A stretch of DNA of 15,357 nucleotides from an uncultured archaeon (lineage in GTDB: Archaea > Thermoproteota > Bathyarchaeia > Bathyarchaeales > Bathycorpusculaceae), in the NCBI GenBank assembly GCA_963810275.1, contig CAWENF010000012.1:1-15357 (forward strand), written 5' to 3'. Made by a program: the position numbers and the translations under genes. Below are positions 1,578 through 15,258 of this stretch, piece by piece. The notes below the pieces were generated by a model. It was given only the letters and a program-made list of their open reading frames with translations, was not told the DNA's origin and made no database searches. Each line of letters starts with the position of its first letter. The stretch's first letter is position 1.

Positions 1578-3476
1578 TTACTTGAGGCGCTCACGTAGCA
1601 GTTTGCCGACCAGTTCAGGGTTAGCTTTGCCACGCACTTCCTTCATTGCGGCGCCCATAAGCATAGCAAACACGTTCTTGCTCATCTTCTCAATCTGCAC
1701 CTTGTTAGCTGCAACGATGCGGTCAATTATGGGCACAAGGTCGGCTTCAGTGTACATCTTCAAGCCCAAGGCGGCGGTTGCGTCCAGCACAGTTTTCTCC
1801 TCGTTTTTGCTAAGCCACGTGAAAACGTCTGCAACTGCCTCTTTAGCAAGTTCGCCAGCGCCGACAGCTTTGAAGATGCCGCCGATTTGCTCGTCAGTGA
1901 CGTTTTCAGCTGCGACACCATCGCGTCTAAGGGCTTTAACGGTCTCTGTCAGGAACGCCGCTATGGTAGATGCTGCGACTTGGCAACTTTTGGCGGTTTC
2001 CTCAAACAGTGCGTTGTATTCGCAGTCGATGAGTTGCCTTGCGAGTTTTTCATTTAAGCTGTACTGCTTGATTAGCCGAGCTAGTTTTTTGTCGGCTGGT
2101 TCGGGAAGGTTAGCTTTGATTTCTGCAACAAGCTCTTCGGTGATGGGTTGTGGGGGTATGTCGGTTTCGGGGTACATGCGGGCTGCGCCGGGTCGGGGGC
2201 GCATGTAGCGGGTGGTGCCGTCGTCTTTGGCTGTTCGGGTCTCCTGCGGGATAAATTTGCAGGCTACTTGGGCTCGTTCAACCACTGCTTTAAGTGCGTC
2301 ATGGGTGTTTTCGGCGGTGTCAGCTACGAAGACCACTGCGTCAGCTTCTGCTGCGCGGACTGCTTCTCTTAATGCCTTGACCTCTTCGGCGGTTATGCCG
2401 TAGTTTGCCAAGTTTTCGTCGGTGTGGAATATACCGCCCACTCTGCCCCAGAACTTCGCATAATCCGACAACTCACTGCCTAAACGGAAGCCAGGCATCA
2501 ATTCCCGACCTGTCAAGCCGTTGAAGCCCATGAGTTTGACGGCAAGCACCGTCTGTTTTTTGTCCACTGCCTTTCGGATAATCTTGCTCTCGGATGCTTG
2601 GAATATGCCTGTTACGTCCACGAATTCAGGTTTTAGTTGGTCGGGGGTGATACCTCTTTTTGCCATTTCCTCTTTAATTGCGACCAGGTTTAGTTGGCGC
2701 TGGACCTCGTAGTCGACGACGGTTGAGATTAGCTCGAGTTCCTGTACACCTTTGATTTCGATTAGGGTACCGTTTGGGATTGAGACATTGAGGTCTTGGC
2801 GGATGGTGCCCAAGCCGCGCATGACTTTACCTGTGTCTCGGAGGATTCTTCCGATGGCAAAGGCTACTTCTTGTGCCTCCTGCGGTGAGTAAATCACAGG
2901 GGCCGTTGCAACTTCGATAAGTGGGATGCCGAGACGGTCAATGCGGTACCGTATTGTTTTACCCTCATGCATAGTACCAGTTTTGCGTGCGGCGTCCTCT
3001 TCAAGAAAGGCGGCCTGCATTGGGATGATTTTGTCGTTTACCTTTATCCAACCGTCCAACGCTAAGGTGCAGGTGCGCTGAAAGCCCGTGGTGTTGGAGC
3101 CGTCGATAACGGTTTTGCGCATCACGTGCACTTCGTCAACTGTGTGCATATTCATCATAAGAGAAGCAGTTAAAACGACTTTAACGGCATCCAAATTAAT
3201 CGGATGTGGAGGTTCCTCATCCATCTCCACAAGGCAGGCGCTTTCGCGGTTAGCTTCATAGAGAATTCTCACCCCTTTTTGGAATTCAAAGTACGCTGCA
3301 GGATCCACCTGCCCCAATTCACTTTGCGTCGGGCGCAATCTACGGAGGAAAGTGATTTCGGGTTCTTCCTTGAATAAGATCGGGGGACAGCTGCAGAAGA
3401 GTTTACTGTTAACGTTGAGTTGCTGGTGGATTTCTAAGCCGACTTTTAAGCCGACTTTCTGATAATCGATGGTCAT
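1578..3476 (-). CDS. gatE: Glutamyl-tRNA(Gln) amidotransferase subunit E
   Basis: 632 aa with the GatB/GatE motifs GLEIHQQL, KLFCSC, IDGSNTTGFQRT, LEEDAARK, DRLGIPLIEVAT, GLGTIRQDLNVSI and RPGAARMYPETD. Has the AspRS-like insertion and lies next to gatD. Confidence 0.98.
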   Translation of the reverse strand: MTIDYQKVGLKVGLEIHQQLNVNSKLFCSCPPILFKEEPEITFLRRLRPTQSELGQVDPAAYFEFQKGVRILYEANRESACLVEMDEEPPHPINLDAVKVVLTASLMMNMHTVDEVHVMRKTVIDGSNTTGFQRTCTLALDGWIKVNDKIIPMQAAFLEEDAARKTGTMHEGKTIRYRIDRLGIPLIEVATAPVIYSPQEAQEVAFAIGRILRDTGKVMRGLGTIRQDLNVSIPNGTLIEIKGVQELELISTVVDYEVQRQLNLVAIKEEMAKRGITPDQLKPEFVDVTGIFQASESKIIRKAVDKKQTVLAVKLMGFNGLTGRELMPGFRLGSELSDYAKFWGRVGGIFHTDENLANYGITAEEVKALREAVRAAEADAVVFVADTAENTHDALKAVVERAQVACKFIPQETRTAKDDGTTRYMRPRPGAARMYPETDIPPQPITEELVAEIKANLPEPADKKLARLIKQYSLNEKLARQLIDCEYNALFEETAKSCQVAASTIAAFLTETVKALRRDGVAAENVTDEQIGGIFKAVGAGELAKEAVADVFTWLSKNEEKTVLDATAALGLKMYTEADLVPIIDRIVAANKVQIEKMSKNVFAMLMGAAMKEVRGKANPELVGKLLRERLK

Positions 3477-3477
3477 T

Positions 3478-4818
3478 TTATTGTTCTACTTCCTTGACTG
3501 TATCCTGCGGCTGGGTACGGGGTGAGTATTCACCGGCAATATTGGTTTTAAGCAGCTTTTTGGCTTCCTTCGGGTCTTCTGTTTGCCCAAGCGCCCACAT
3601 CAACTTGACTAAGCCCGTTTCTGGGAACATGTCGTCTAAGGGGATAACACCGAAGCTTTGCAGGTCTCGACCCGTATCGTAAACGTCCATGTCAACGCGC
3701 CCCCAGATGCACTGTGAGGCAAGTGCGATTACTACGCCTTTTTGGGTGGCTCGTTTGATGGCTTCGAAGCAGAATTTGCTCACGTGCCCCAAACCTGAGC
3801 CCTCCAAGAGGATTCCTCGGAAGCCCCGTTCGGCGTAGAAGTCAATTACTGCTGAGTCAAGTCCGGGGTGGAACTTGACAAGCGCTACTGTCTCGCAGAA
3901 ATTAGGCTTCAAAACAAGTTTGTGGGTTGGGTCGCGCTTCTGATAATTGCCTGGAAGCATAGTGACTTGCTGGTTTTGTACTCGAGCGAGTGGGAAACCG
4001 TTGATGGGTTTGAAGGTGTCTCTTCGGCTGGTGTGGCATTTGCGGACTTTGGTACCTCTGTGTACGACGGTTGCCATGTCTGAGGTGGTTTCGTGCATAG
4101 CTAGGCCGACTTCTGCGAAGGGTGCTTCACCTGCGACTTTGACTGCACCAATGAGGTTGGTTGCGGCGTCACTGCTGGGTCGGTCGGAAGAACGCTGGGC
4201 GCCTACAAGGATTACTGGAACAGGGAGGTTTTGGAGAGCGAAACTGAGGGCGGCGGCGGTGTAGCCCATAGTGTCCGTACCATGTGCGATAACTATGCCA
4301 TCTACGCCTTTTTCTATACGTTGCGCCACCGTCTCAGCCAGTGCTGTCCAGTCTTGCGGGCGCAAGTTCTCGCTGTAAATGCTAAATACAATTTCCGTGT
4401 CCACCCGTGCGATGTCAGCGAGTTCAGGCACGACACCGTAGAGGTCGCTTGCAGACATTGCAGAACGCACGGCACCTGTGCGGTAGTCTACTCGGCTGGC
4501 GATGGTTCCGCCTGTGCTCATAATCACCACGTGGGGCAAGGATGGGTTTTGTTTGGGCAGTGGGGGGACCTCGAATTTGGGTGCGGTGCCTTTGCCGACT
4601 CTTTCGACTTGAACGTCTTGGGTGGCGTTGATGCCGATGTTGTAGCCGCTCTTCATCTTGATGATAATAGCGGTGCCTTCGCCAAAGCGCGGAATCAGGA
4701 TGCCCTCGTAGGTTTTGTCTTTACTGGTGATTTTTAGAATATCGCCTACGTTGCAGTCTGCTGCCTTGAGCAGTTGCAGTGAGGCGCCTTTGTAGCCGTA
4801 GCTTTCAAGTTCACTCAT
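3478..4818 (-). CDS. gatD: Glutamyl-tRNA(Gln) amidotransferase subunit D
   Basis: 446-aa asparaginase-fold protein with the GatD N-terminal domain and motifs STGGTIASRVDYRTG, HGTDTM, GAQRSSDRPSSD and RKCHTSRRDTF. Confidence 0.98.
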   Translation of the reverse strand: MSELESYGYKGASLQLLKAADCNVGDILKITSKDKTYEGILIPRFGEGTAIIIKMKSGYNIGINATQDVQVERVGKGTAPKFEVPPLPKQNPSLPHVVIMSTGGTIASRVDYRTGAVRSAMSASDLYGVVPELADIARVDTEIVFSIYSENLRPQDWTALAETVAQRIEKGVDGIVIAHGTDTMGYTAAALSFALQNLPVPVILVGAQRSSDRPSSDAATNLIGAVKVAGEAPFAEVGLAMHETTSDMATVVHRGTKVRKCHTSRRDTFKPINGFPLARVQNQQVTMLPGNYQKRDPTHKLVLKPNFCETVALVKFHPGLDSAVIDFYAERGFRGILLEGSGLGHVSKFCFEAIKRATQKGVVIALASQCIWGRVDMDVYDTGRDLQSFGVIPLDDMFPETGLVKLMWALGQTEDPKEAKKLLKTNIAGEYSPRTQPQDTVKEVEQ

Positions 4819-6407
4819 TAAATTAGCCTCTTTGAAACATAAACTCCATCACGTCTATAACCCAAGCGCACGTAGTACCGCCTTGTTCCTAAGGCACTGA
4901 TAACTAAAAGCTTTTTGACCCTGAATTCGTCGCGGGCAACTCGTTCGGCTTCGGCGAGCAGGTCTTTTCCGAAACCCTGATGCTGCCAAGCACCTTCTGT
5001 GCGTTTGCCGACTGGGACAAGAGGTCCGTATACGTGGAGTTCACGCACGATTGCGGAAGGCGCTTTGGTGATTTCTGGGCGGTGTGCTTTGGCTGAGGGA
5101 ATACGGAGTCGCAGATAGCCTAAAAGTACGTCATTTTTGTGGTCTTCAACGGATATGAACAGTTCAGTGCCCTCCGAAGCCGAGTATCGTTCGGTCTGGA
5201 TTTTGATGTTTTCCAAATCAGGTTTTATGTGATCAACCTGTAAGCGGTGTCCCACCTCTCGACATCGAATACAATTACAACTCAATCCCTGAGCGTGGAG
5301 CCGCTGCTGTGCGAGTTCACGCAGGTTGCTTTTCTTAACGCCGGCCAAAATTAAGCCGGAGGGGATGTCGCGCTGGATACGCATAACGCGTACCCATTTG
5401 GGTATGAACTTTTTGATTTCCGAGATTACTTCGGTTGCCTGCTCGGTGATGTAGGGGGTGTATGTTCCTTCTTTTTGCCACTGGTTGGCTTTGGTGCCCT
5501 CTATGGCGAGACACGGATATATTTTGAGCATGTCGGGTTTGAAGGTGGACTCAGTGAATATGCGCTTAAACGCCTCGATGTCTTTTTGCGGGCTGCTGCC
5601 GGGCATGCCTGGCATCATATGATAAACAATCTTTAAACCAGCGTCTTTGGCGATTTGGGTTGCTTCGACCACATCCGCTACTGTGTGTATACGTCCATTG
5701 AGACGATAAATTTCGTCGTCGGGATTCTGCACACCCAACTCAATGCGAGTCACGCCCATGTCAAGCATAGCGTTGATGTGGGGCTGCTTTGCCCAGTCAG
5801 GCCGTGTCTCCACAGTTATGCCCACGTTGCGTACAATGCTTAATTCAGCGTTTGCCTTTGCCTCCTCAAGACTCCGGGAGGTTTTGCCTGTGATGGCATC
5901 AAGTGACCGCTGAATAAATCTCGTCTGATACTCGGGGGGTGTAGCGGGGAAGGTTCCACCCATCACTATGAGCTCGATTTTATCTACCTTGTGCCCGATT
6001 TGTGTTAGCTGCTCGACCCTACTTCTGACCTGCTGGTAAGGGTCAAAGCTGTTCTGGGACCCACGCATGGCTGCTGGCTCATGACCTGTATAGCTCTGTG
6101 GCGAGCCGGCGGTCGGTCCTCCTGGGCAGTATGCGCAGGGCTCCGGCTGAGGGCAAGGATAGGGTTTGGTCATGACGGCAACGACTGTTACTCCGCTTAT
6201 GGTGCGGGTGGTTTTGCGCCTTAATAGTGGGAGAAGCAGCTTTGATTCCTCAGGCGTTAACTGACTAATGATGTCGGCGCTTGATGGCACCTTCTCCAGA
6301 TGGAACTTTCCTGCCGTTTTGATCTTGAGCTTGTTAACGTCGTTACGCGTAGGAGACTGCATTGAAAGAAGCGTTTTGATGATTTCACGAAGTGCCTTTT
6401 CCATCAA
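4818..6407 (-). CDS. elp3: Elp3 tRNA wobble-uridine (cm5U) modification enzyme, radical SAM plus KAT/GNAT domains
   Basis: Motifs RTISGVTVVAVM, CPQPEPCAYCPGG (radical SAM), QSYTGHEPA, ETRPDW, LKIYPC, RIQRDIP, CNCIRCRE, IVRELHVYG and WQHQGFG. Its stop overlaps the gatD start (TAATG). Start is TTG at 6407 or ATG at 6404. Confidence 0.96.
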   Translation of the reverse strand: MMEKALREIIKTLLSMQSPTRNDVNKLKIKTAGKFHLEKVPSSADIISQLTPEESKLLLPLLRRKTTRTISGVTVVAVMTKPYPCPQPEPCAYCPGGPTAGSPQSYTGHEPAAMRGSQNSFDPYQQVRSRVEQLTQIGHKVDKIELIVMGGTFPATPPEYQTRFIQRSLDAITGKTSRSLEEAKANAELSIVRNVGITVETRPDWAKQPHINAMLDMGVTRIELGVQNPDDEIYRLNGRIHTVADVVEATQIAKDAGLKIVYHMMPGMPGSSPQKDIEAFKRIFTESTFKPDMLKIYPCLAIEGTKANQWQKEGTYTPYITEQATEVISEIKKFIPKWVRVMRIQRDIPSGLILAGVKKSNLRELAQQRLHAQGLSCNCIRCREVGHRLQVDHIKPDLENIKIQTERYSASEGTELFISVEDHKNDVLLGYLRLRIPSAKAHRPEITKAPSAIVRELHVYGPLVPVGKRTEGAWQHQGFGKDLLAEAERVARDEFRVKKLLVISALGTRRYYVRLGYRRDGVYVSKRLI

Positions 6408-6880: not shown

Positions 6881-7816
6881 ATGCCGTTTAAGAAAAACAA
6901 AAAAGACTCTCAAGAAGCTTTGGAGCTTGAATGGAGCCTACAAGTCAAAAACTACAAGTTATGCTTGGACCGCAAACGCTGCGTCGGATGCGAAATCTGC
7001 ACCTTAGCCTGCCCCAAACAGGCGATTTCCACCGCAAAGCAGACTAAAGTTGATGGAAAAGCGCAGAAAGCGAAAATCGACATCGACATCGAAAAATGCA
7101 ACTTTTGCGGCGTATGTGAAATCACATGCCCCTACGGCGCAGTTAAAGTGTCCCAAAACGGCAGTAGCGACCTCGCTGTGCTGAAGAAGGAAAGTTACCC
7201 GAAACTTATCCGAGACATAACGGTGAACCCTAAGAAGTGCGATAAGACCTGCAATGACTGTAAAACCATCTGCCCCTTAGACCTAATCAAAATATCAAAG
7301 GTGGGTTTTGACAACAAACCTATCGAGGACTTCTCCAAACTCTCCGAGCTGGGCAAAAAACGAGTCCAAGTCACCGTAAACATAGATAAACAACATTGCC
7401 CAACATGCCGAGTTTGCGAGTTCAAATGTAGCCCCGGCGCCATCCGAGTTACCAAAACATTCGAAGGGAAAATCGCCATCGACCAAGAAAAATGTCATGA
7501 AGGCTGCAATGACTGTTTTGACGTGTGTCCTATTACTGGAGCATTAGTTTTGGGGGCGAACGGCAAAGTGTACACTAACGAACTGTTCTGCACTTACTGT
7601 GGCGCCTGCCTAAACGTGTGTCCAAAACCCGAAGCCCTCACTCTTAAACGTACAAAGATTCATCATGAACCGGTGCATTCGGGTGCTTGGAATAAAACCT
7701 TAGAGCGCTTAACCAGCTCAGAAAACGCAGTAAAAGAGCTAAAAGCTAACGCCTCTAAAGCTCGGCTACAGCTGGTTGAGGACCGCTTCAGAGTTGAGGA
7801 GCTGAAAAAGAAATGA
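6881..7816 (+). CDS. Polyferredoxin with six [4Fe-4S] motifs (FwdF/MvhB-like)
   Basis: Motifs CVGCEICTLACP, CNFCGVCEITCP, CDKTCNDCKTICP, CPTCRVCEFKCS, CHEGCNDCFDVCP and CTYCGACLNVCP. Upstream GGAGG at about 6863-6867 and AT-rich TATA-like TATTTATTA at about 6788-6796. ATGA overlap with the next gene. Confidence 0.9.
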   Translation: MPFKKNKKDSQEALELEWSLQVKNYKLCLDRKRCVGCEICTLACPKQAISTAKQTKVDGKAQKAKIDIDIEKCNFCGVCEITCPYGAVKVSQNGSSDLAVLKKESYPKLIRDITVNPKKCDKTCNDCKTICPLDLIKISKVGFDNKPIEDFSKLSELGKKRVQVTVNIDKQHCPTCRVCEFKCSPGAIRVTKTFEGKIAIDQEKCHEGCNDCFDVCPITGALVLGANGKVYTNELFCTYCGACLNVCPKPEALTLKRTKIHHEPVHSGAWNKTLERLTSSENAVKELKANASKARLQLVEDRFRVEELKKK

Positions 7817-10236
7817 CCACACCGCAAAATAAACCTGAACCTCTCCGAGTGGGCGTCTTTGTATGCCATTGCGGGTTGAACATAGCAGGCACTGTAGACG
7901 TCCACGCCGTCGCGAAATACGCAAAAACCATCCCAGACGTCATTTTCGTCAAGGAGAACCGCTACACATGCGCCGACCCGGGGCAAGAAGAAATTCGCAA
8001 TGCCATTAAAGACCACAACCTTAACCGCGTCGTCATCGCTGCCTGCTCTCCGCGAATGCATGAGGCGACCTTCCGCCGAACCGTCTCCGAAGCAGGGCTT
8101 AACCCGTTTCTCTACGAGATGGCTAACATCCGCGAGTTCGCTTCTTGGTGTCACCAAAGCGACCCCGCCGCGGCTACGGAACGCGCTAAAGACACCTTGA
8201 AAATGGCGGTCGCCAAAGTCCGACTCGCCCAGCCTCTGCAAAGCATCAATGTACCAGTGACTAACAAAGCGCTGGTCGTAGGCGGAGGCATCGCAGGCAT
8301 AAACGCCGCTTTGGATCTGGCAGAGCAAGGCTTCAAAGTCTACATTGTCGAGAATAGCCAAAGCATCGGCGGACACATGGCTGCATTGGACAAAACCTTC
8401 CCAACCTTGGACTGTAGTATCTGTATTGAAGGACCAAAGATGGTGGATTGCGCACGTCACCCAAACATTACGATTTTCACAAACAGTGACTTGGTGAGCT
8501 GTGATGGATACATCGGCAACTTTAAGGTTAAAATTCGCAAAAACCCCCGCTATGTTATCACTGACAAGTGCACGGGCTGTGGAGAATGCAAAGATGCTTG
8601 CCCGATCGAGTATCCAAACGAGTGGGATATGAACTTAGGCACAAGAAAGGCCATCTCTGTACCGTTTGATCAGTCTGTGCCCCTAATTTACGGAATTAAC
8701 CGCGATTACTGTATTGAGTGCTTCAAGTGTGTTGATGTCTGTGGGGAGCGTGACGCCATTGACTTTGAACAGCAACCTCAGGAGGTAGAAATAGATGTGG
8801 GTGCCATCGTGGTCTCCACTGGCTTTGACATATACTTGCCATACGACATGCCCCTTATGGGCTACGGCAAATACCCCAACGTCTTAACCAGCATGGAGTT
8901 CGAGCGTCTTATCTTAGCGGCTGGCCCGACGGGAGGCAAAGTTATCCGTCAATCTGATGGCAAAAGACCCAAACGCATAGCCTTCATACAATGCGTAGGA
9001 AGCCGAGACAAACAGCACTACGCATACTGCTGCAACTTCGGCTGCATGTACACCCTAAAACACACAGTGCAACTTAAAGAGAAATACAAAGAAGAAGTGG
9101 AGGTCTACGTTTTCTACATTGACATCCGCAGTTCTGGCAAAGGCTACGAGGAGTTCTATGACCGAGCACGGGTGGATGGAGTGAACTTTATCCGAGGGCG
9201 GGTAAGCCGAATCGATGAAGACCCCGAAACTCATAACATCACGGTGCATAGCGAAGATAGTTTGCTTGGGCAGCCGATTGAGGTGGAAGCGGACATGGTT
9301 GTGCTCGCAACCGCAGCCATACCCAAAAAAGGCAGCGAAGAAATCGCCCGCATCCTTAATCTCAGTCGTGACGCCGATGGCTTCTTTATGGAGGCACACC
9401 CCAAACTCAAACCGCTCGATGCACCAACGGACGGCATCTTTTTCGCAGGCGCATGCGCAGGCTTAAAAGATATTCCTTACAGTGTATCACAGGGTTCAGG
9501 TGCAGCGGCAAGGGCTGCAACAATCATCAGCAAGGACACATGGAAAATCGAGCCAATAATCAGCGTCGTGGACGCGGAGAAATGCAAGAAATGTGGCATA
9601 TGCGTGGATAAGTGCCCTTATGGCGCCATAAAACTGGAGCCCGGAAAACCAGCAAGCATCATAACTGCCAGCTGTCATGGCTGCGGAACATGCGTTGCCG
9701 AATGCCCCCACGGAGCTATCACGCAGCGGCACTTCACGGACGCCCAAATTCACGCACAAATAAAAGCGGCGCTTGAAACTAACCCGGAAGACAAAATCCT
9801 TGCGATTTTGTGCAATTGGTGCAGCTATGCAGGCGCTGATCTTGCGGGTGTCAGCCGATGTGAATATCCAGCAAGCGTTAGAGCAATACGCGTTATGTGT
9901 AGCGGCAGAGTGGCAAAAGAATTCGTGCTTGAAGCCCTTCGCCTGGGCGCTGGAGCGGTGCTGGTTGGTGCATGCCATCTACCTTACGATTGCCACTACA
10001 TAAGCGGCAACTACAAAATGAAGGAACGCACAGACGCACTCAAAGCAACGCTAACTAAACTCGGCATGAGCCCAGAGCGCTTCCGAGTCGAATACGTCTC
10101 AGCCGCAGAAGGCATCCACTACGCAGAGGTTATCAAAGAAATGGACTCTAGCCGTAAAGCCCTTGGAAAAGAGAGAATTAAAGCGGAAACCAAGAAGCTT
10201 AAGCCGTATTTGGATAGGCTACTCAAAAACAGATAG
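7813..10236 (+). CDS. hdrA: Heterodisulfide reductase subunit A fused to a C-terminal MvhD [2Fe-2S] domain
   Basis: HdrA features: RVGVFVCHCGLNI, AACSPRMHE, NIREFASW, FAD-binding GGGIAG, LDKTFPTLDCSICI, an inserted ferredoxin domain, IQCVGSRD...YCC and a C-terminal 2x[4Fe-4S]. These are followed by the MvhD motifs LCNWCSYAGAD, IRVMCSGRV, GACHLPYDCHY and VSAAEG. Confidence 0.95.
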   Translation: MTTPQNKPEPLRVGVFVCHCGLNIAGTVDVHAVAKYAKTIPDVIFVKENRYTCADPGQEEIRNAIKDHNLNRVVIAACSPRMHEATFRRTVSEAGLNPFLYEMANIREFASWCHQSDPAAATERAKDTLKMAVAKVRLAQPLQSINVPVTNKALVVGGGIAGINAALDLAEQGFKVYIVENSQSIGGHMAALDKTFPTLDCSICIEGPKMVDCARHPNITIFTNSDLVSCDGYIGNFKVKIRKNPRYVITDKCTGCGECKDACPIEYPNEWDMNLGTRKAISVPFDQSVPLIYGINRDYCIECFKCVDVCGERDAIDFEQQPQEVEIDVGAIVVSTGFDIYLPYDMPLMGYGKYPNVLTSMEFERLILAAGPTGGKVIRQSDGKRPKRIAFIQCVGSRDKQHYAYCCNFGCMYTLKHTVQLKEKYKEEVEVYVFYIDIRSSGKGYEEFYDRARVDGVNFIRGRVSRIDEDPETHNITVHSEDSLLGQPIEVEADMVVLATAAIPKKGSEEIARILNLSRDADGFFMEAHPKLKPLDAPTDGIFFAGACAGLKDIPYSVSQGSGAAARAATIISKDTWKIEPIISVVDAEKCKKCGICVDKCPYGAIKLEPGKPASIITASCHGCGTCVAECPHGAITQRHFTDAQIHAQIKAALETNPEDKILAILCNWCSYAGADLAGVSRCEYPASVRAIRVMCSGRVAKEFVLEALRLGAGAVLVGACHLPYDCHYISGNYKMKERTDALKATLTKLGMSPERFRVEYVSAAEGIHYAEVIKEMDSSRKALGKERIKAETKKLKPYLDRLLKNR

Positions 10237-11538: not shown

Positions 11539-12627
11539 TTACCTTGTGATTTTAGCCTGGCGAACTGTCTCAAGGCAGTCTTTGGCTTCCATATTGTTAG
11601 CAAAGTAGCGGCGCACTGGCTCAAGAATATCGGCAAGCTGGGCGGCAACGCCGTTTTTAAGATCCATAGGATGGAGTTTACCCTCAACATATGTTTCTTC
11701 AAGCTGCTGCTGACTTTCAAACGATAAGTTGCCGCCGAACTTAGCGGGTCGCTCAATATTAAAGACCGGTTTCTCTCTGAAAATGATGTAGCGACAAATG
11801 TCCATAATTGGGTTGTGCGTCACTGTTTTCTCTGGACAGAAGGCTTTGGACATTTTCATCTTTATCGCCTCAGGTGTGTCATATATGAAGATGCAAGTGT
11901 CAGGTTTACTTTTAGACATCTTGGCAGAAGCGATAGCTTCTCGTTCCTGTCCCTCGGGAATAGGCCAAATCGAGGGTTTCGCCAACCCCTGCAAAAGGTG
12001 ATGGTGGATACAAACAGGCTTCCAGTAGCCGATTTTTTGACCGATTTCGCGCCCAACCATATTGGCCTTGCGCTGGTCTAAGCCAAGCTGGCAGATCTTG
12101 ACGTTTAGCTGAAAGATGTCGGCGACCTGCATGGGTGTATAGAGGTAATCGGATACGTAGTGGGCTTCCCCTTCCTTGCGACCCGCTATTTCCAGCGTGC
12201 GGGTGGTGCGGGCAATGGTGAGTTCTTTAGCGATGCGCACGGTTTTAGCCCAGTAGTCGATGTCTTGGTAGACCTCGTCAGAGTAGATGAATTCGACTTT
12301 ATCGCCGGGCACCCCAAGCGCAAGCCAGCTATGCTTGAAGAGATCGGCGGCTTTTCTAATTAATTCGCGGTCGCCTCCGAGCTTGTTGTTTAGCCAGGCA
12401 TGCCAAGTTGCCAAAAATGCCTTGTAGCGGATGCCTGCTTCGGCAAAGTCCTTCATCTTGTAAGCGCAGATAACACCAGTTCCAAGATGCGCCAATCCTG
12501 AGGGTTCCCAGCCATTGTAGGCAATTGGATGCTTTTCAGATTCAAGTAGAGCGCGTAGATCATCTTTTGTAACGACTTCTTCGGTTGGTGGTCTGCAAAT
12601 AAGCTCAATTTTACGTTCAATATCCAA
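11539..12627 (-). CDS. tyrS: Tyrosyl-tRNA synthetase (archaeal type)
   Basis: Motifs AYNGWEPSG, HIGH-like HLGT, YTPMQVADIF, GLDQRKAN, KMSKS, AFCP and LHPMDLK. Confidence 0.96.
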   Translation of the reverse strand: MDIERKIELICRPPTEEVVTKDDLRALLESEKHPIAYNGWEPSGLAHLGTGVICAYKMKDFAEAGIRYKAFLATWHAWLNNKLGGDRELIRKAADLFKHSWLALGVPGDKVEFIYSDEVYQDIDYWAKTVRIAKELTIARTTRTLEIAGRKEGEAHYVSDYLYTPMQVADIFQLNVKICQLGLDQRKANMVGREIGQKIGYWKPVCIHHHLLQGLAKPSIWPIPEGQEREAIASAKMSKSKPDTCIFIYDTPEAIKMKMSKAFCPEKTVTHNPIMDICRYIIFREKPVFNIERPAKFGGNLSFESQQQLEETYVEGKLHPMDLKNGVAAQLADILEPVRRYFANNMEAKDCLETVRQAKITR

Positions 12628-12769
12628 GTTAGTTCCAGCTCTTTACAGTAGCCTAATGATTGTTGGGAATTTAAAAATTTACTCGGTAAAGAGATGCTAT
12701 CCTTCTTAATATTCAACAAATCTCGTTTAAAGGAATTTTTCCTAAAATTAAGTGTTTAGAGTTAACCAG

Positions 12770-13102
12770 CTATCTTGTTGAGTATCCGCTGGTCATTGAA
12801 CTGTACGGGTTTTGTTTCTCTCTGTTTTCAGCTATCTCCTTCATTTCTTCAACCGCTTGAACTATACCTCTATCTGCCAACAAACTACCTAAAACAATCG
12901 AACGAGATAACAATTCAACTTTCCCGTTACCAACATTATTTTTAATCTCTGAAAGAGTCATTTCGTTTGCAGTGGAATAAAGTTCTATTATGCAAGTTTT
13001 CGGGCGATCTTCAGGAATCCCCCGAGTGACTATAACATAATAATCAGTTTTTCCCCTTGAATAAATGCTTGCATCTGAGTCGAATTTTGACCAATTCAAC
13101 AT
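12770..13102 (-). CDS. Hypothetical protein (orphan, AT-rich)
   Basis: 110-aa ATG-initiated ORF with a plausible own promoter (TTTAAG at about 13139-13144) and an upstream AAGGT. No recognisable motif. Confidence 0.6.
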   Translation of the reverse strand: MLNWSKFDSDASIYSRGKTDYYVIVTRGIPEDRPKTCIIELYSTANEMTLSEIKNNVGNGKVELLSRSIVLGSLLADRGIVQAVEEMKEIAENREKQNPYSSMTSGYSTR

Positions 13103-13250
13103 TACAGGTGACCTTGTCTCTCTGTATTTAGATCAGGACTTAAAGATATATTTCTTTGCACGACTTTTGTTTACCTTTAAGTGAGTAGTTAAGTGCAAAA
13201 TTAAATCAAGATAATTAACAGTGATTGCTAAGGAAAGAAGCAACAGATAG

Positions 13251-13450
13251 CCGCAAATTTCGCGGGCAGTTTGTCTCCCGACGTAACCTAACACTTAACT
13301 TCACAGTAGGACTCTGTCCATCTAAGCTAAGTTCTCTCGGCGCGGGAATTTAGGCCCGGCCCACTGTGTCCCTTGTTTGGGTGAACCCGCCTTCACGGCG
13401 GCGCAAGCGTATTGGGTCTTGCAGCTCTGTTGGGTCCGTCGTCAAGGGTG
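13251..13450 (-). ncRNA. Candidate structured non-coding RNA of unknown family
   Basis: About 56% GC by hand count, against about 28% in 13141-13240. TATA-like TTTTAATA at 13471-13478 lies about 25 nt upstream. Several helices can be formed by hand, and their G-U pairs favour the minus strand. Ends in a 3' hairpin plus a pyrimidine tract. Confidence 0.6.
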
Positions 13451-13500
13451 GAATTACCAGTGGGGAAATGTATTAAAATTGATAACCAAATTAAGTGTTC

Positions 13501-14508
13501 CTATCCTGAAGTCGAAACAACATTCTGGGGCTGCCCCGCGCTGAACTGCTTGATGTTTTCGATCGTCATTTGGGTAAGACGTTCCAAGGATTCCTTGCTG
13601 TTAAACGCACAGTGCGGTGTAATAATGACATTGTTTAGGCGCAGCAATATGTGGGCCCGAAGCATCGTTGCCAACTGCTCCCGAGGCAAATTGTCTAGCA
13701 GCAACTGGGCCTCTTCGCGTATAAGCATCTCCTCCTCCAGCACATCCAAACCAGCGCCTCGAAGCCTGTTCTCAACCAGCGCCTCGGTAAGCGACTCCGA
13801 ATCCACCAATCCGCCCCGAGCAGTGTTGATGACAATTGCAGACGGTTTCATCAGGCGAATTGAGTCTTGATTTAGGAAATGGTGAGTTTCATCGTTAAGT
13901 GGCAAATGAAACGTAACCACATCAGATTCACGCAGAAGCCGTTTCCAATCCACATACTCAAACCCCAATTTTTCTGCTAAGTCGCTTTTGGGGAACTTGT
14001 CAAATGCCAGAATCTTCATGCTAAAGCCTTTGGCGATACCGATGACGTGAGCGCCTATGCGCCCCGTGCCCAGCACACCCAAGGTTTTGCCGTTTAAGTC
14101 AAAGCCCTGCACGCTTTCGCAGTTGAAGTCTCCGCGGCGGCTACGCTCGTAAGAGTCATGGATGCCCCGCGAGAGAGACAGGATAAGAGCAAAGGTGTGT
14201 TCTGCAACGGTGATTTCGCCGTAAATGGGCACGTTGCAGACGAGTATTCCTTTTTGTTTGGCAGCGGCGGTGTCGATGTGGTCAAAGCCGGTTGAGCGGG
14301 TGGATATGAGTTTGGTTTTGGACAGTTTACCGATGAGTTCGGCGGTTAGGTCTGAGTATATGAAAACCGAAACCACCTCGGCGTCTGCTGCCTTTGAAAT
14401 ATTGTCCTCGTCCAGTGGCTCATGATACATCTCCATGTCAAAGCCAGTTAAGCCGTCTTTGAGTAGTTGTTCCTCCCATGGTTGAACCTCAAAAAATACT
14501 ATCTTCAA
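13501..14508 (-). CDS. D-isomer-specific 2-hydroxyacid dehydrogenase (D-lactate dehydrogenase-like, NAD-dependent)
   Basis: Motifs STRSTGFDHID, VAEHTFALIL, NAD-binding GTGRIG, and catalytic INTARG / LDVLEEE / TPH. I place the start at TTG 14508 (MKIVFFEV), which is preceded by an SD-like GGTGA, instead of GTG 14538. Confidence 0.92.
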   Translation of the reverse strand: MKIVFFEVQPWEEQLLKDGLTGFDMEMYHEPLDEDNISKAADAEVVSVFIYSDLTAELIGKLSKTKLISTRSTGFDHIDTAAAKQKGILVCNVPIYGEITVAEHTFALILSLSRGIHDSYERSRRGDFNCESVQGFDLNGKTLGVLGTGRIGAHVIGIAKGFSMKILAFDKFPKSDLAEKLGFEYVDWKRLLRESDVVTFHLPLNDETHHFLNQDSIRLMKPSAIVINTARGGLVDSESLTEALVENRLRGAGLDVLEEEMLIREEAQLLLDNLPREQLATMLRAHILLRLNNVIITPHCAFNSKESLERLTQMTIENIKQFSAGQPQNVVSTSG

Positions 14509-14604
14509 AAAATCACCACAAACAACAAAGAATAGCACGCTGTTAAAGTTAAGTCATTTGGCAACTTAACAATAATCCAGAAGCGCTTTTGATGGTAAAA
14601 TAGA

Positions 14605-15181: not shown

Positions 15182-15258
15182 TGGGGCCGGGGCCGAGATT
15201 TGAACTCGGGCGAAAGGCTCCACAGGCCTCTATGCTACCAAGCTACATCACCCCGGCC
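15182..15258 (-). tRNA. tRNA-His(GUG), intronless, with encoded G-1 and CCA
   Basis: Cloverleaf: acceptor GCCGGGG/CCCCGGC, D stem ATGT/GCAT, anticodon arm GAGGC-CTGTGGA-GCCTT, T arm CCGAG-TTCAAAT-CTCGG, discriminator C73, then CCA. G-1 is at 15258. Confidence 0.97.

Follow-up and report, generated by a model that had tools for sequence, protein, structure and literature searches.

A conserved two-hairpin RNA of Bathyarchaeia with the layout of a box H/ACA pseudouridine guide

A 15,357-nucleotide (nt) stretch of DNA from an uncultured archaeon of the class Bathyarchaeia (contig CAWENF010000012.1 of assembly GCA_963810275.1; hereafter the window) contains a structured non-coding RNA (ncRNA) on its minus strand, at about 13466-13259. 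A covariance model of the element (R1) matches the locus over model positions 1-217 with 169.9 bits. The RNA folds into two hairpins that carry the features of archaeal box H/ACA RNAs, and we regard it as very probably a stand-alone, two-hairpin box H/ACA pseudouridine guide small RNA (sRNA) of about 190-210 nt. It is most likely a new family member within a known RNA class, absent from Rfam. A preliminary description of the region had proposed an undescribed or ribozyme-like RNA. The strings it quoted all lie where it had placed them on the minus strand. It had set aside signal recognition particle RNA, RNase P RNA, transfer RNA, C/D RNAs and self-cleaving cores, and the covarying fold now assigns the RNA to a class that it had left unconsidered.

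The RNA is conserved across Bathyarchaeia

A DNA search among relatives identified the element in 30 of 41 genomes, the source genome included, usually as a single copy. Alignment A1 holds 30 loci, and the covariance model R1 that was built has 217 positions and 45 base pairs. In the order, R1 matched 139 of 151 genomes over its full length (100 of the 105 high-quality ones), representing 61 of 63 genera and 12 of 12 families. At E ≤ 0.01, R1 detected the RNA in 132 of 151 genomes of the class Bathyarchaeia, including 84 of 95 of high quality. At the level of the phylum (Thermoproteota), 59 of 151 genomes gave a match. All 20 in-class genomes were among them; the other 39, from the 131 genomes outside the class, matched more weakly (23-51 bits) and aligned to hairpin 1 alone, hairpin 2 alone or both, at times in tandem. 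In five out-of-class genomes (G386, G295, G344, G365 and G337) the two hairpin types stand apart or in direct tandem, in units of about 110-180 nt, and some of these overlap weak matches to the H/ACA RNA HgcG. The two-hairpin gene may have arisen by fusion, or may have been split.

A pattern scan of genome records returned 94 stretches, and the best 80 of the 94 came mostly from Bathyarchaeota/Bathyarchaeia (Bathy-6, AD8-1, UBA233, Bathycorpusculum). A few of these 80 were labelled Nitrososphaerota, Thermoproteota, Methanocella, Nanoarchaeia, Methanobacteriota or bacteria (Acidiferrales, Dehalococcoidia, Limnocylindrales); the bacterial and other-archaeal labels probably reflect mis-binned contigs or mislabelled bins. 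Two Bathyarchaeial records hold a second, partial copy about 1-1.5 kb from the full RNA (L110:1754-1891 and L121:1917-2068); one comprises only hairpin 2 (64.4 bits), the other only hairpin 1 (33.8 bits).

A 53-pair structure was scored on a model-guided alignment (A2) of 88 matches with 75 distinct rows. On these 75 sequences, in an alignment that was fitted to R1 and therefore leans towards R1's pairs, 88.1% of cells were paired, compared with 32-48% when the 3' partners were slid by 1-3 columns. Double-sided changes occurred in 46 of the 53 pairs, and none of 500 shuffles reached the observed values. Insertions and deletions of 1-2 nt fall in loops. G-U pairs are common (GU in 63 of 75 rows at one pair of helix P7, and in 69 of 75 at one pair of the upper stem of hairpin 1) and therefore fix the RNA strand as minus. 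The structured minus-strand RNA of the preliminary description is borne out by these data, as is its raised GC content, which is 0.51-0.62 in 100-nt windows over 13250-13449 versus 0.30-0.40 over 13100-13299, towards the downstream flank.

Searches with existing models were negative at the locus. At gathering thresholds, the sole Rfam match in the window was the transfer RNA (tRNA) at 15185-15257, and at E ≤ 10 the interval 13000-13700 gave a single chance match on the opposite strand (RF01097, 16 bits, E 4.1). ARAGORN found tRNA-His alone in the window. RNase P RNA and signal recognition particle (SRP) RNA were considered and rejected: both are found elsewhere in the source genome above threshold (C1:69324-69617, 187.2 bits, and C2:50736-51051, 150.5 bits, respectively), and the RNA is therefore neither. 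Folding of the single sequence gave a z-score of -1.34 on the minus strand, with 19 of 200 shuffles equal or better, and +0.23 on the plus strand. This is not significant, and the ncRNA call would not stand on it alone. RNAalifold on the raw MAFFT alignment recovered the fold in part only. The preliminary description had been right to expect homologues with covariation, no Rfam family or tRNA at the locus, and neither RNase P nor SRP RNA; the folding z-score that it had suggested as a check proved weak.

Each hairpin has the layout of an archaeal H/ACA RNA

Hairpin 1 (SL1, 13448-13367) is closed by the lower stem P2, CCCUUG/CAAGGG (13448-13443/13375-13370; 89.9% paired, 7 of 7 pairs doubly changed). 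The internal loop above it consists of a 5' guide strand, ACGACGG (13442-13436), and a 3' guide strand, CACCCAAA (13383-13376). It is followed by the upper stem GACCC/GGGUU (13436-13432/13388-13384), a kink-turn (K-turn) with invariant GA at 13427-13426 and 13394-13393 and a 3-nt bulge at 13397-13395, and the apical stem-loop GCAAG/CUUGC (13422-13403; 95.3% paired, 5 of 5 doubly changed). An ACA box (13369-13367) directly follows the lower stem and is conserved in both A1 and A2. The SL1 upper stem and the C-stem of its K-turn are absent from R1, and a one-column register shift in A2 lowers the pairing of the upper stem to 63.7%; the stem was hence recounted from sequence anchors, which gave pairing at positions 1-5 in 66-69 of 74 sequences. 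Position 4, for example, is CG in 39, UA in 24 and UG in 5 of the 74.

Hairpin 2 (SL2, 13346-13272) repeats this order. Its lower stem P6, CCCGCG/CGUCGGG (13346-13341/13283-13277), is 97.8% paired, with 5 of 6 pairs doubly changed. The 5' guide strand CCGAGAGA (13340-13333) and the 3' guide strand GUUAGGUUA (13292-13284, then C13283) form the internal loop, and the upper stem P7, ACUUAGC/GUUAAGU (13332-13325/13300-13293), is 94.8% paired. The K-turn places A13323 with G13302 beside a bulge at 13305-13303, and the apical hairpin GGAC/GUCC spans 13319-13309 (76-83% paired). Helices P8 and P9 are 81.5% and 83.3% paired. The ACA box of SL2 (13274-13272) lies 2 nt past the lower stem and is likewise conserved in A1 and A2.

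We assign the RNA to the H/ACA class because the elements of each hairpin follow the archaeal layout, in which internal loop, upper stem, K-turn and apical stem are stacked on the lower stem and an ACA box lies 3' of it. The internal loops measure 7-9 nt per strand in both hairpins, within the 5-11 nt range of that layout. The key G and A of the K-turns are invariant in the 30 sequences of A1, and the 3-nt bulge is on the 3' side, which is also its place in the HgcG consensus. The distal G:A pair lies at position 10 above the base of the upper stem in SL2 and at position 10-11 in SL1; it usually lies 9-10 positions above that base (PMC7075261). At first the loops seemed to be 17-18 nt away from the ACA boxes, and the K-turns to be inverted. 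This was resolved by counting from the lower stem, as in PMC7075261, and by comparison with the HgcG consensus. The source genome encodes Cbf5 (429.6 bits), Nop10 (80.5) and Gar1 (36.9), all above cut-offs.

In the mechanism that we propose, L7Ae would bind the K-turn of each hairpin, and Cbf5-Nop10-Gar1 would sit on its lower stem and ACA box. The guide strands of each hairpin would pair with the large-subunit (LSU) ribosomal RNA (rRNA) on either side of one uridine, which Cbf5 would convert to pseudouridine. We infer the assembly of this ribonucleoprotein (RNP), the exact target uridines and the pseudouridines themselves from the features described here.

Two further helices enclose the ACA boxes. 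P1 pairs the 5' leader with the hinge between the hairpins (CCCACUG 13464-13458/CAGUGGG 13366-13360); it is 89.5% paired with 7 of 7 pairs doubly changed, and all seven pairs form in 29 of 31 loci. P5 pairs the hinge with the 3' trailer (CGGGC 13358-13354/GCCCG 13267-13263) and is 93.5% paired with 6 of 6 doubly changed; one locus has CGGGU with ACCCG. The hinge (13366-13347) is thus made up of the 3' strand of P1, the 5' strand of P5 and an A-rich linker (13353-13347), and SL1 lies inside P1 and SL2 inside P5. Since P1 and P5 pair the leader and trailer with the hinge, each ACA box is placed in an internal loop. Bathyarchaeia as a whole conserve the fold, and other Thermoproteota do so for single hairpins.

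The preliminary description had drawn a different secondary structure. Two of its hairpins, GCAAG/CUUGC and GGAC/GUCC, are the apical hairpins of SL1 and SL2 and stand as drawn. Its other helices hold less well than the competing P1, P2, P5 and P6. These are the long terminal helix CUUGACG/CGUCGGG (71.1% paired, 2 of 7 doubly changed), the local hairpin CCGCC/GGCGG (59.1%), the helix CACAGUG/UACUGUG, which was to close a three-way junction (65.1%, 1 of 7), and the arms CGGG/CCCG (78.8%, 1 of 4) and GGC/GCC (48.6%). A three-way-junction model of SL1 that kept the local hairpin CCGCC-GUGAA-GGCGG was also tried and dropped, as the upper stem GACYY/RRGUU and the K-turn covary. The suggested CUAA/UUAG pseudoknot would take its UUAG arm from the covarying stem P7. 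A CCGC/GCGG hairpin at 13265-13251 and the pyrimidine tract after it are not conserved in the 3' flanks of relatives.

The predicted targets are two sites of the LSU rRNA

LSU rRNA is not assembled in the source genome, and targets were therefore sought in the rRNA genes of two congeners with complete genomes. In both (G003 and G014) the small-subunit (SSU) and LSU rRNA genes lie about 1 Mb apart, so that they share no operon. When eight single-stranded segments were compared with SSU and LSU rRNA for plain complementarity, nothing rose above chance (best 10 nt to SSU, matched by 8 of 100 shuffles). A relaxed target model was applied in which 2-6 target nucleotides may remain unpaired. The best LSU match of SL1 under this model is UGGGU [UUAGA] CCGUCG, with 5+6 Watson-Crick pairs near position 2700 of the 3027-nt gene (15 of 100 shuffles equal). 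For SL2 it is GUAAC [UCUGA] CUCUCUC, with 5+7 pairs near position 2030 (5 of 100 shuffles equal). We take the site near 2700, with its three U's, to be the H90-H93 junction of domain V, and the site near 2030 to be the loop of helix 69. SL1 would most likely target the three-U run, the site of Haloferax U2605, and SL2 would most likely target the helix 69 loop, the site of Haloferax U1940/U1942 and Pyrococcus abyssi U2016.

Spacing from the ACA boxes is consistent with these sites. With the relaxed pairing assumed, the third U of the UUU run is 15 nt from the ACA box of SL1, counted over the 3' strand of the lower stem and the paired 3' guide, and the two U's of the helix 69 loop are 14 and 16 nt from the ACA box of SL2 in the window. 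The rule given for the distance from target U to ACA is 15 ± 1 nt (PMC7075261). Within the 3' guide of SL1, ACCCA never varies and the part that could instead pair with SSU rRNA differs between lineages (UUC, UUCU, UUU, UUA); the LSU site is therefore favoured for this hairpin. In SL2 the 3' guide consists of a tandem GUUAG-GUUAC; by our reading, it could pair with 10 nt at the presumed helix 69 site around one bulged U.

Comparison with known H/ACA RNAs

The closest parallel is sR-h45 of Haloferax volcanii, an RNA of about 200 nt that guides pseudouridylation of U2605, in a three-U run between H90 and H93, with its 5' stem-loop, and of U1940 and U1942, in an unpaired U-V-U-N of helix 69, with its 3' stem-loop (PMC7075261). 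The two RNAs are alike in size, in having two hairpins, in K-turns with G:A pairs and in an ANA box after each hairpin, and the targets predicted here follow the same 5'-to-3' order, the three-U site and then helix 69 (PMC7075261). They differ at the three-U site, where the Haloferax 3' guide pairs two A's with the first two U's and the Bathyarchaeial guide offers only one A (C/U-ACCCA), which therefore leaves the extra U unpaired. They also differ in the hinge, which is 56 nt and said to be able to form a pseudoknot in Haloferax, as opposed to about 20-30 nt pairing with leader and trailer here (PMC7075261). The RNA would then be the Bathyarchaeial counterpart of sR-h45, a proposed homology drawn from layout and predicted targets only.

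SL2 would in turn correspond to motif 3 of the HgcG RNAs of Thermococcales and Archaeoglobus (Pab40/Pf7/Afu4, RF00064). Motif 3 of Pab40 targets U2016, one of the two conserved pseudouridines of stem-loop 69 in P. abyssi (PMC2377435). In the Rfam consensus, motif 3 shares with SL2 the order of elements and the orientation of the K-turn (..GAUGA on the 3' side), and its 3' guide GUGUUAC compares with GUGUUAGGUUAC here, GUGUUA being common to both. HgcG differs in having three hairpins instead of two, a lower stem of 10 base pairs (bp) instead of 6-7 and the 5' guide GGGUUAG instead of CCGAGAGAG, and the 3' guide here contains a tandem duplication of 4-5 nt. In out-of-class relatives HgcG scores 16-30 bits, and three R1 matches overlap same-strand HgcG matches of 30.3, 26.5 and 25.3 bits (the gathering threshold is 77).

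Within the same phylum, Sulfolobus islandicus sR115 and sR435 are classic H/ACA RNAs with K-turn, internal loop, lower stem and ACA (PMC11077068). Its atypical sR148 uses one 3' guide for two nearby uridines, U2060 and U2066, which Table 1 of the same article equates with E. coli 1917 and yeast 2266 (PMC11077068). The S. islandicus RNAs differ from the present one in being single hairpins, sR148 without lower stem or ACA box, and the excerpts of PMC11077068 list no Sulfolobus guide for the three-U site of domain V.

Evidence that weighs against a classic guide

Several observations count against a classic H/ACA guide. The lower stems are only 6-7 bp long; the descriptor used for Pyrococcus H/ACA RNAs required at least 7 (PMC2377435). 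Much of the genus has A:A or C:A as the second pair of the SL2 K-turn, where other families have G:A. HgcG (RF00064) gave no match at the locus in any of five Bathyarchaeial genomes and none in the window at gathering threshold or at E ≤ 10, so that the RNA is not a member of RF00064 as defined, and no Rfam H/ACA model scored above threshold. Both ACA boxes are enclosed by the additional covarying helices P1 and P5, and the literature consulted describes no such helices for classic archaeal H/ACA RNAs.

The target pairings add to this list. They leave 4-5 target nucleotides unpaired versus the canonical 2, and their shuffle controls are modest; a guide pocket is able to hold more than two unpaired nucleotides, according to work cited in PMC7075261. 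With the canonical 2 unpaired nucleotides, other sites come up: SL1 matches SSU rRNA (GGUGAA-UA-CGUC, 6+4 pairs, 5 of 100 shuffles equal), and SL2 matches LSU rRNA (UCUGAC-UC-UCUC, 6+4 pairs including 2 G-U, where shuffles average about 0.1 matches). The latter register lies just downstream of the relaxed match in the same LSU stretch and has an ACA spacing of 17-18 nt. The helix 69 and H90-H93 assignments are our reading of the LSU sequence, together with the wording 'three consecutive U's' in PMC7075261.

The strongest rival explanation draws on the same features. An L7Ae-binding, H/ACA-like scaffold might act without pseudouridylation, either as a chaperone of rRNA folding on helix 69 and domain V or as an orphan guide with other targets. 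The atypical pairings, the 10-nt pairing of the tandem guide and the enclosure of the ACA boxes would suit such a role, and S. islandicus has one guide with eight targets and many predicted targets that fail (PMC11077068). Against it, the same two sites are proven catalytic targets of Haloferax sR-h45 and the ACA spacing fits the 15 ± 1 rule (PMC7075261); the ACA boxes are also conserved, and Cbf5, Nop10 and Gar1 are encoded. We therefore consider a non-catalytic scaffold or orphan guide unlikely.

Promoter and transcript ends

A putative promoter box resembling a B recognition element and TATA box, ACACTTAATTTG (13486-13497, minus strand; core CTTAATTT at 13495-13488), lies about 25 nt upstream of P1. 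By eye, the box (aaCAyTTAAyy) is conserved at equal distance in all loci of the genus. Loci of other families have a TATA-like box of their own about 25-30 nt upstream of the 5'-most conserved element, a GGCGAUGA...GAGC hairpin (by eye). This extra hairpin, seen between promoter and P1 in L016, L020, L023, L029, L030 and L031, carries a C-box or K-loop-like UGA...GA signature; the window's genus lacks it.

Four RNA libraries from as many studies yield contigs that cover only 13275-13451; a 177-nt contig among them is 100% identical to the window. The contigs, which prove neither ends, absence nor strand, end at 13450/13451 in three of four runs; in two runs other than that of the 177-nt contig, they continue past 13450 by 3-4 letters and then into adapter. 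None of the four runs covers the flanks 13000-13264 or 13456-13700. The preliminary description had placed a transcription start near 13450, which agrees with these ends, and had found a promoter-like box directly upstream of the RNA, for which there is a conserved one. The box from which it had predicted that start, TTTTAATA (13478-13471), lies only 6 nt upstream of the 5' strand of P1. It is more likely an AT-rich promoter-proximal stretch of the upstream promoter; a second promoter at this site is possible, given the contig ends at 13450/13451. On the 3' side, short T runs (TTT 13257-13255 and CTTCTTTCC 13240-13232) mark a putative termination zone at 13232-13257 that is not conserved, and relatives have oligo-T runs 8-45 nt past the RNA (by eye).

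The contig limits, 13451 and 13275, fall just inside P1 and P5 and match those of a canonical H/ACA RNA, from 3 nt before the SL1 lower stem to just before the ACA box of SL2. Either the 5' strand of P1 and the 3' strand of P5 belong to a precursor only, or the contigs are truncated. A more specific proposal, which we put forward tentatively and with well under even confidence, is that the outer helices constitute an undescribed precursor fold controlling trimming or RNP assembly, or a mature 'clamped' H/ACA RNA, and that the tandem guide GUUAG-GUUAC reads presumed helix 69 in two registers, guiding the loop uridines and the adjoining downstream ones.

Genomic context and the neighbouring tyrS gene

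The locus is non-coding and is flanked by two minus-strand open reading frames (ORFs), one for a D-2-hydroxyacid dehydrogenase (13501-14538) and an orphan ORF of 110 amino acids (aa) at 12770-13102. The gene for tyrosine-tRNA ligase (tyrS, 11539-12627, minus strand; NF006330, 402.6 bits) lies beyond the latter, outside the RNA, and is a frequent downstream neighbour. Among 108 distinct loci, 65 have tyrS downstream in the same orientation, in several families, at spacings of 52-5990 nt, about half of them below 100 nt. In one locus tyrS is divergent, and in 42 the fetched flank, which is shorter than 1200 nt in 13 of them, shows none.

This synteny raises the possibility that the RNA is a cis-regulatory tyrS leader, such as a riboswitch, a T-box-like element or an autoregulatory tRNA mimic, and the many co-oriented loci, often 52-100 nt from tyrS, speak for it. 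The loci without tyrS or with a divergent one do not. Unrelated genes intervene, namely the orphan 110-aa ORF in the window, a conserved ORF of 81-84 aa, or a pair of 85 and 137 aa (L003). Where the RNA adjoins tyrS, the two are separated by an oligo-T run and by a TATA-like box that precedes the tyrS start codon by about 25-30 nt (by eye). The RNA-library contigs stop at 13275, and the fold is that of an H/ACA RNA. A leader is accordingly very improbable. Because variable genes intervene and T runs and a TATA-like box precede the tyrS start, we read the RNA as a separate gene in conserved synteny with tyrS.

As tyrS adjoins, U35 of tRNA-Tyr was also considered as a candidate target. Pseudouridine 35 of tRNA-Tyr is guided by H/ACA RNAs in Sulfolobales (PMC2651775; PMC11077068). 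The generic anticodon-loop context of tRNA-Tyr fits neither guide loop here (by eye). ARAGORN, with or without intron mode, found no tRNA-Tyr gene in the source genome, whose assembly is 92.6% complete; it may fall in the part that was not assembled, or contain an intron of an unusual kind.

The orphan 110-aa ORF lies in an AT-rich stretch (12640-13240, GC 0.28-0.40). It has no Pfam or NCBIfam family, and tblastn against the other loci matched only the copy on contig C22 of the source genome; it lies between the RNA and tyrS and resembles an inserted or a spurious reading frame. Contig C22 (C22:1-5000, locus L033) holds a second copy of the neighbourhood, about 97-100% identical to the window and including the RNA (99% identical), the orphan ORF, tyrS, a Toprim gene, the dehydrogenase and tRNA-His. 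The probable explanation is that C22 was duplicated or comes from a variant strain (assembly contamination 4.45%). The conserved 81-84-aa ORF, which starts M-x-E-S-V/I-T-F-E-P, lies 10-28 nt past the RNA in several members of the genus (L005, L007, L017, L018, L019, L026 and L012) and is shortened or displaced in others (49 aa, 40 aa). A 187-aa ORF in L008 has an N-terminal part similar to the C-terminal half of this ORF. The position directly 3' of the RNA seems to be a hotspot of gene insertion. Elsewhere in the window are genes for an 807-aa HdrA-like protein with FAD/ferredoxin domains fused to an MvhD/FlpD domain (7813-10236, plus strand), and for GatD, GatE and an ELP3-like radical SAM/acetyltransferase protein (1578-4818 and 4818-6407, both minus strand).

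The RNA region is partly overlapped by a plus-strand ORF of 152 aa (13412-13870). This ORF and the insignificant folding z-score could suggest a conserved DNA element or the remnant of a coding gene with no functional RNA, a reading that we consider scarcely credible in view of the compensatory changes, the G-U pairs on one strand, the indels in loops and the presence in RNA libraries of the region without its flanks.

Implications

Bathyarchaeia are abundant, mostly uncultured archaea of sediments and soils, and their ncRNAs are essentially unannotated. Literature searches on non-coding and H/ACA RNAs of Bathyarchaeia, which were not exhaustive, found no description of this RNA. It occurs in about nine of ten searched genomes of the class and is detected by no Rfam model; a model like R1 would annotate it in hundreds of genomes. 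Two of its details are unusual, namely the covarying helices P1 and P5 that enclose the ACA boxes and the tandem guide GUUAG-GUUAC; they bear on how H/ACA RNAs are made and how they read their targets. The RNA predicts that conserved pseudouridines in helix 69 and in the peptidyl-transferase region are RNA-guided in Bathyarchaeia. If it is indeed the counterpart of sR-h45, the two-hairpin arrangement of Haloferax would be widespread in archaea, and its hairpins can also be separate genes.

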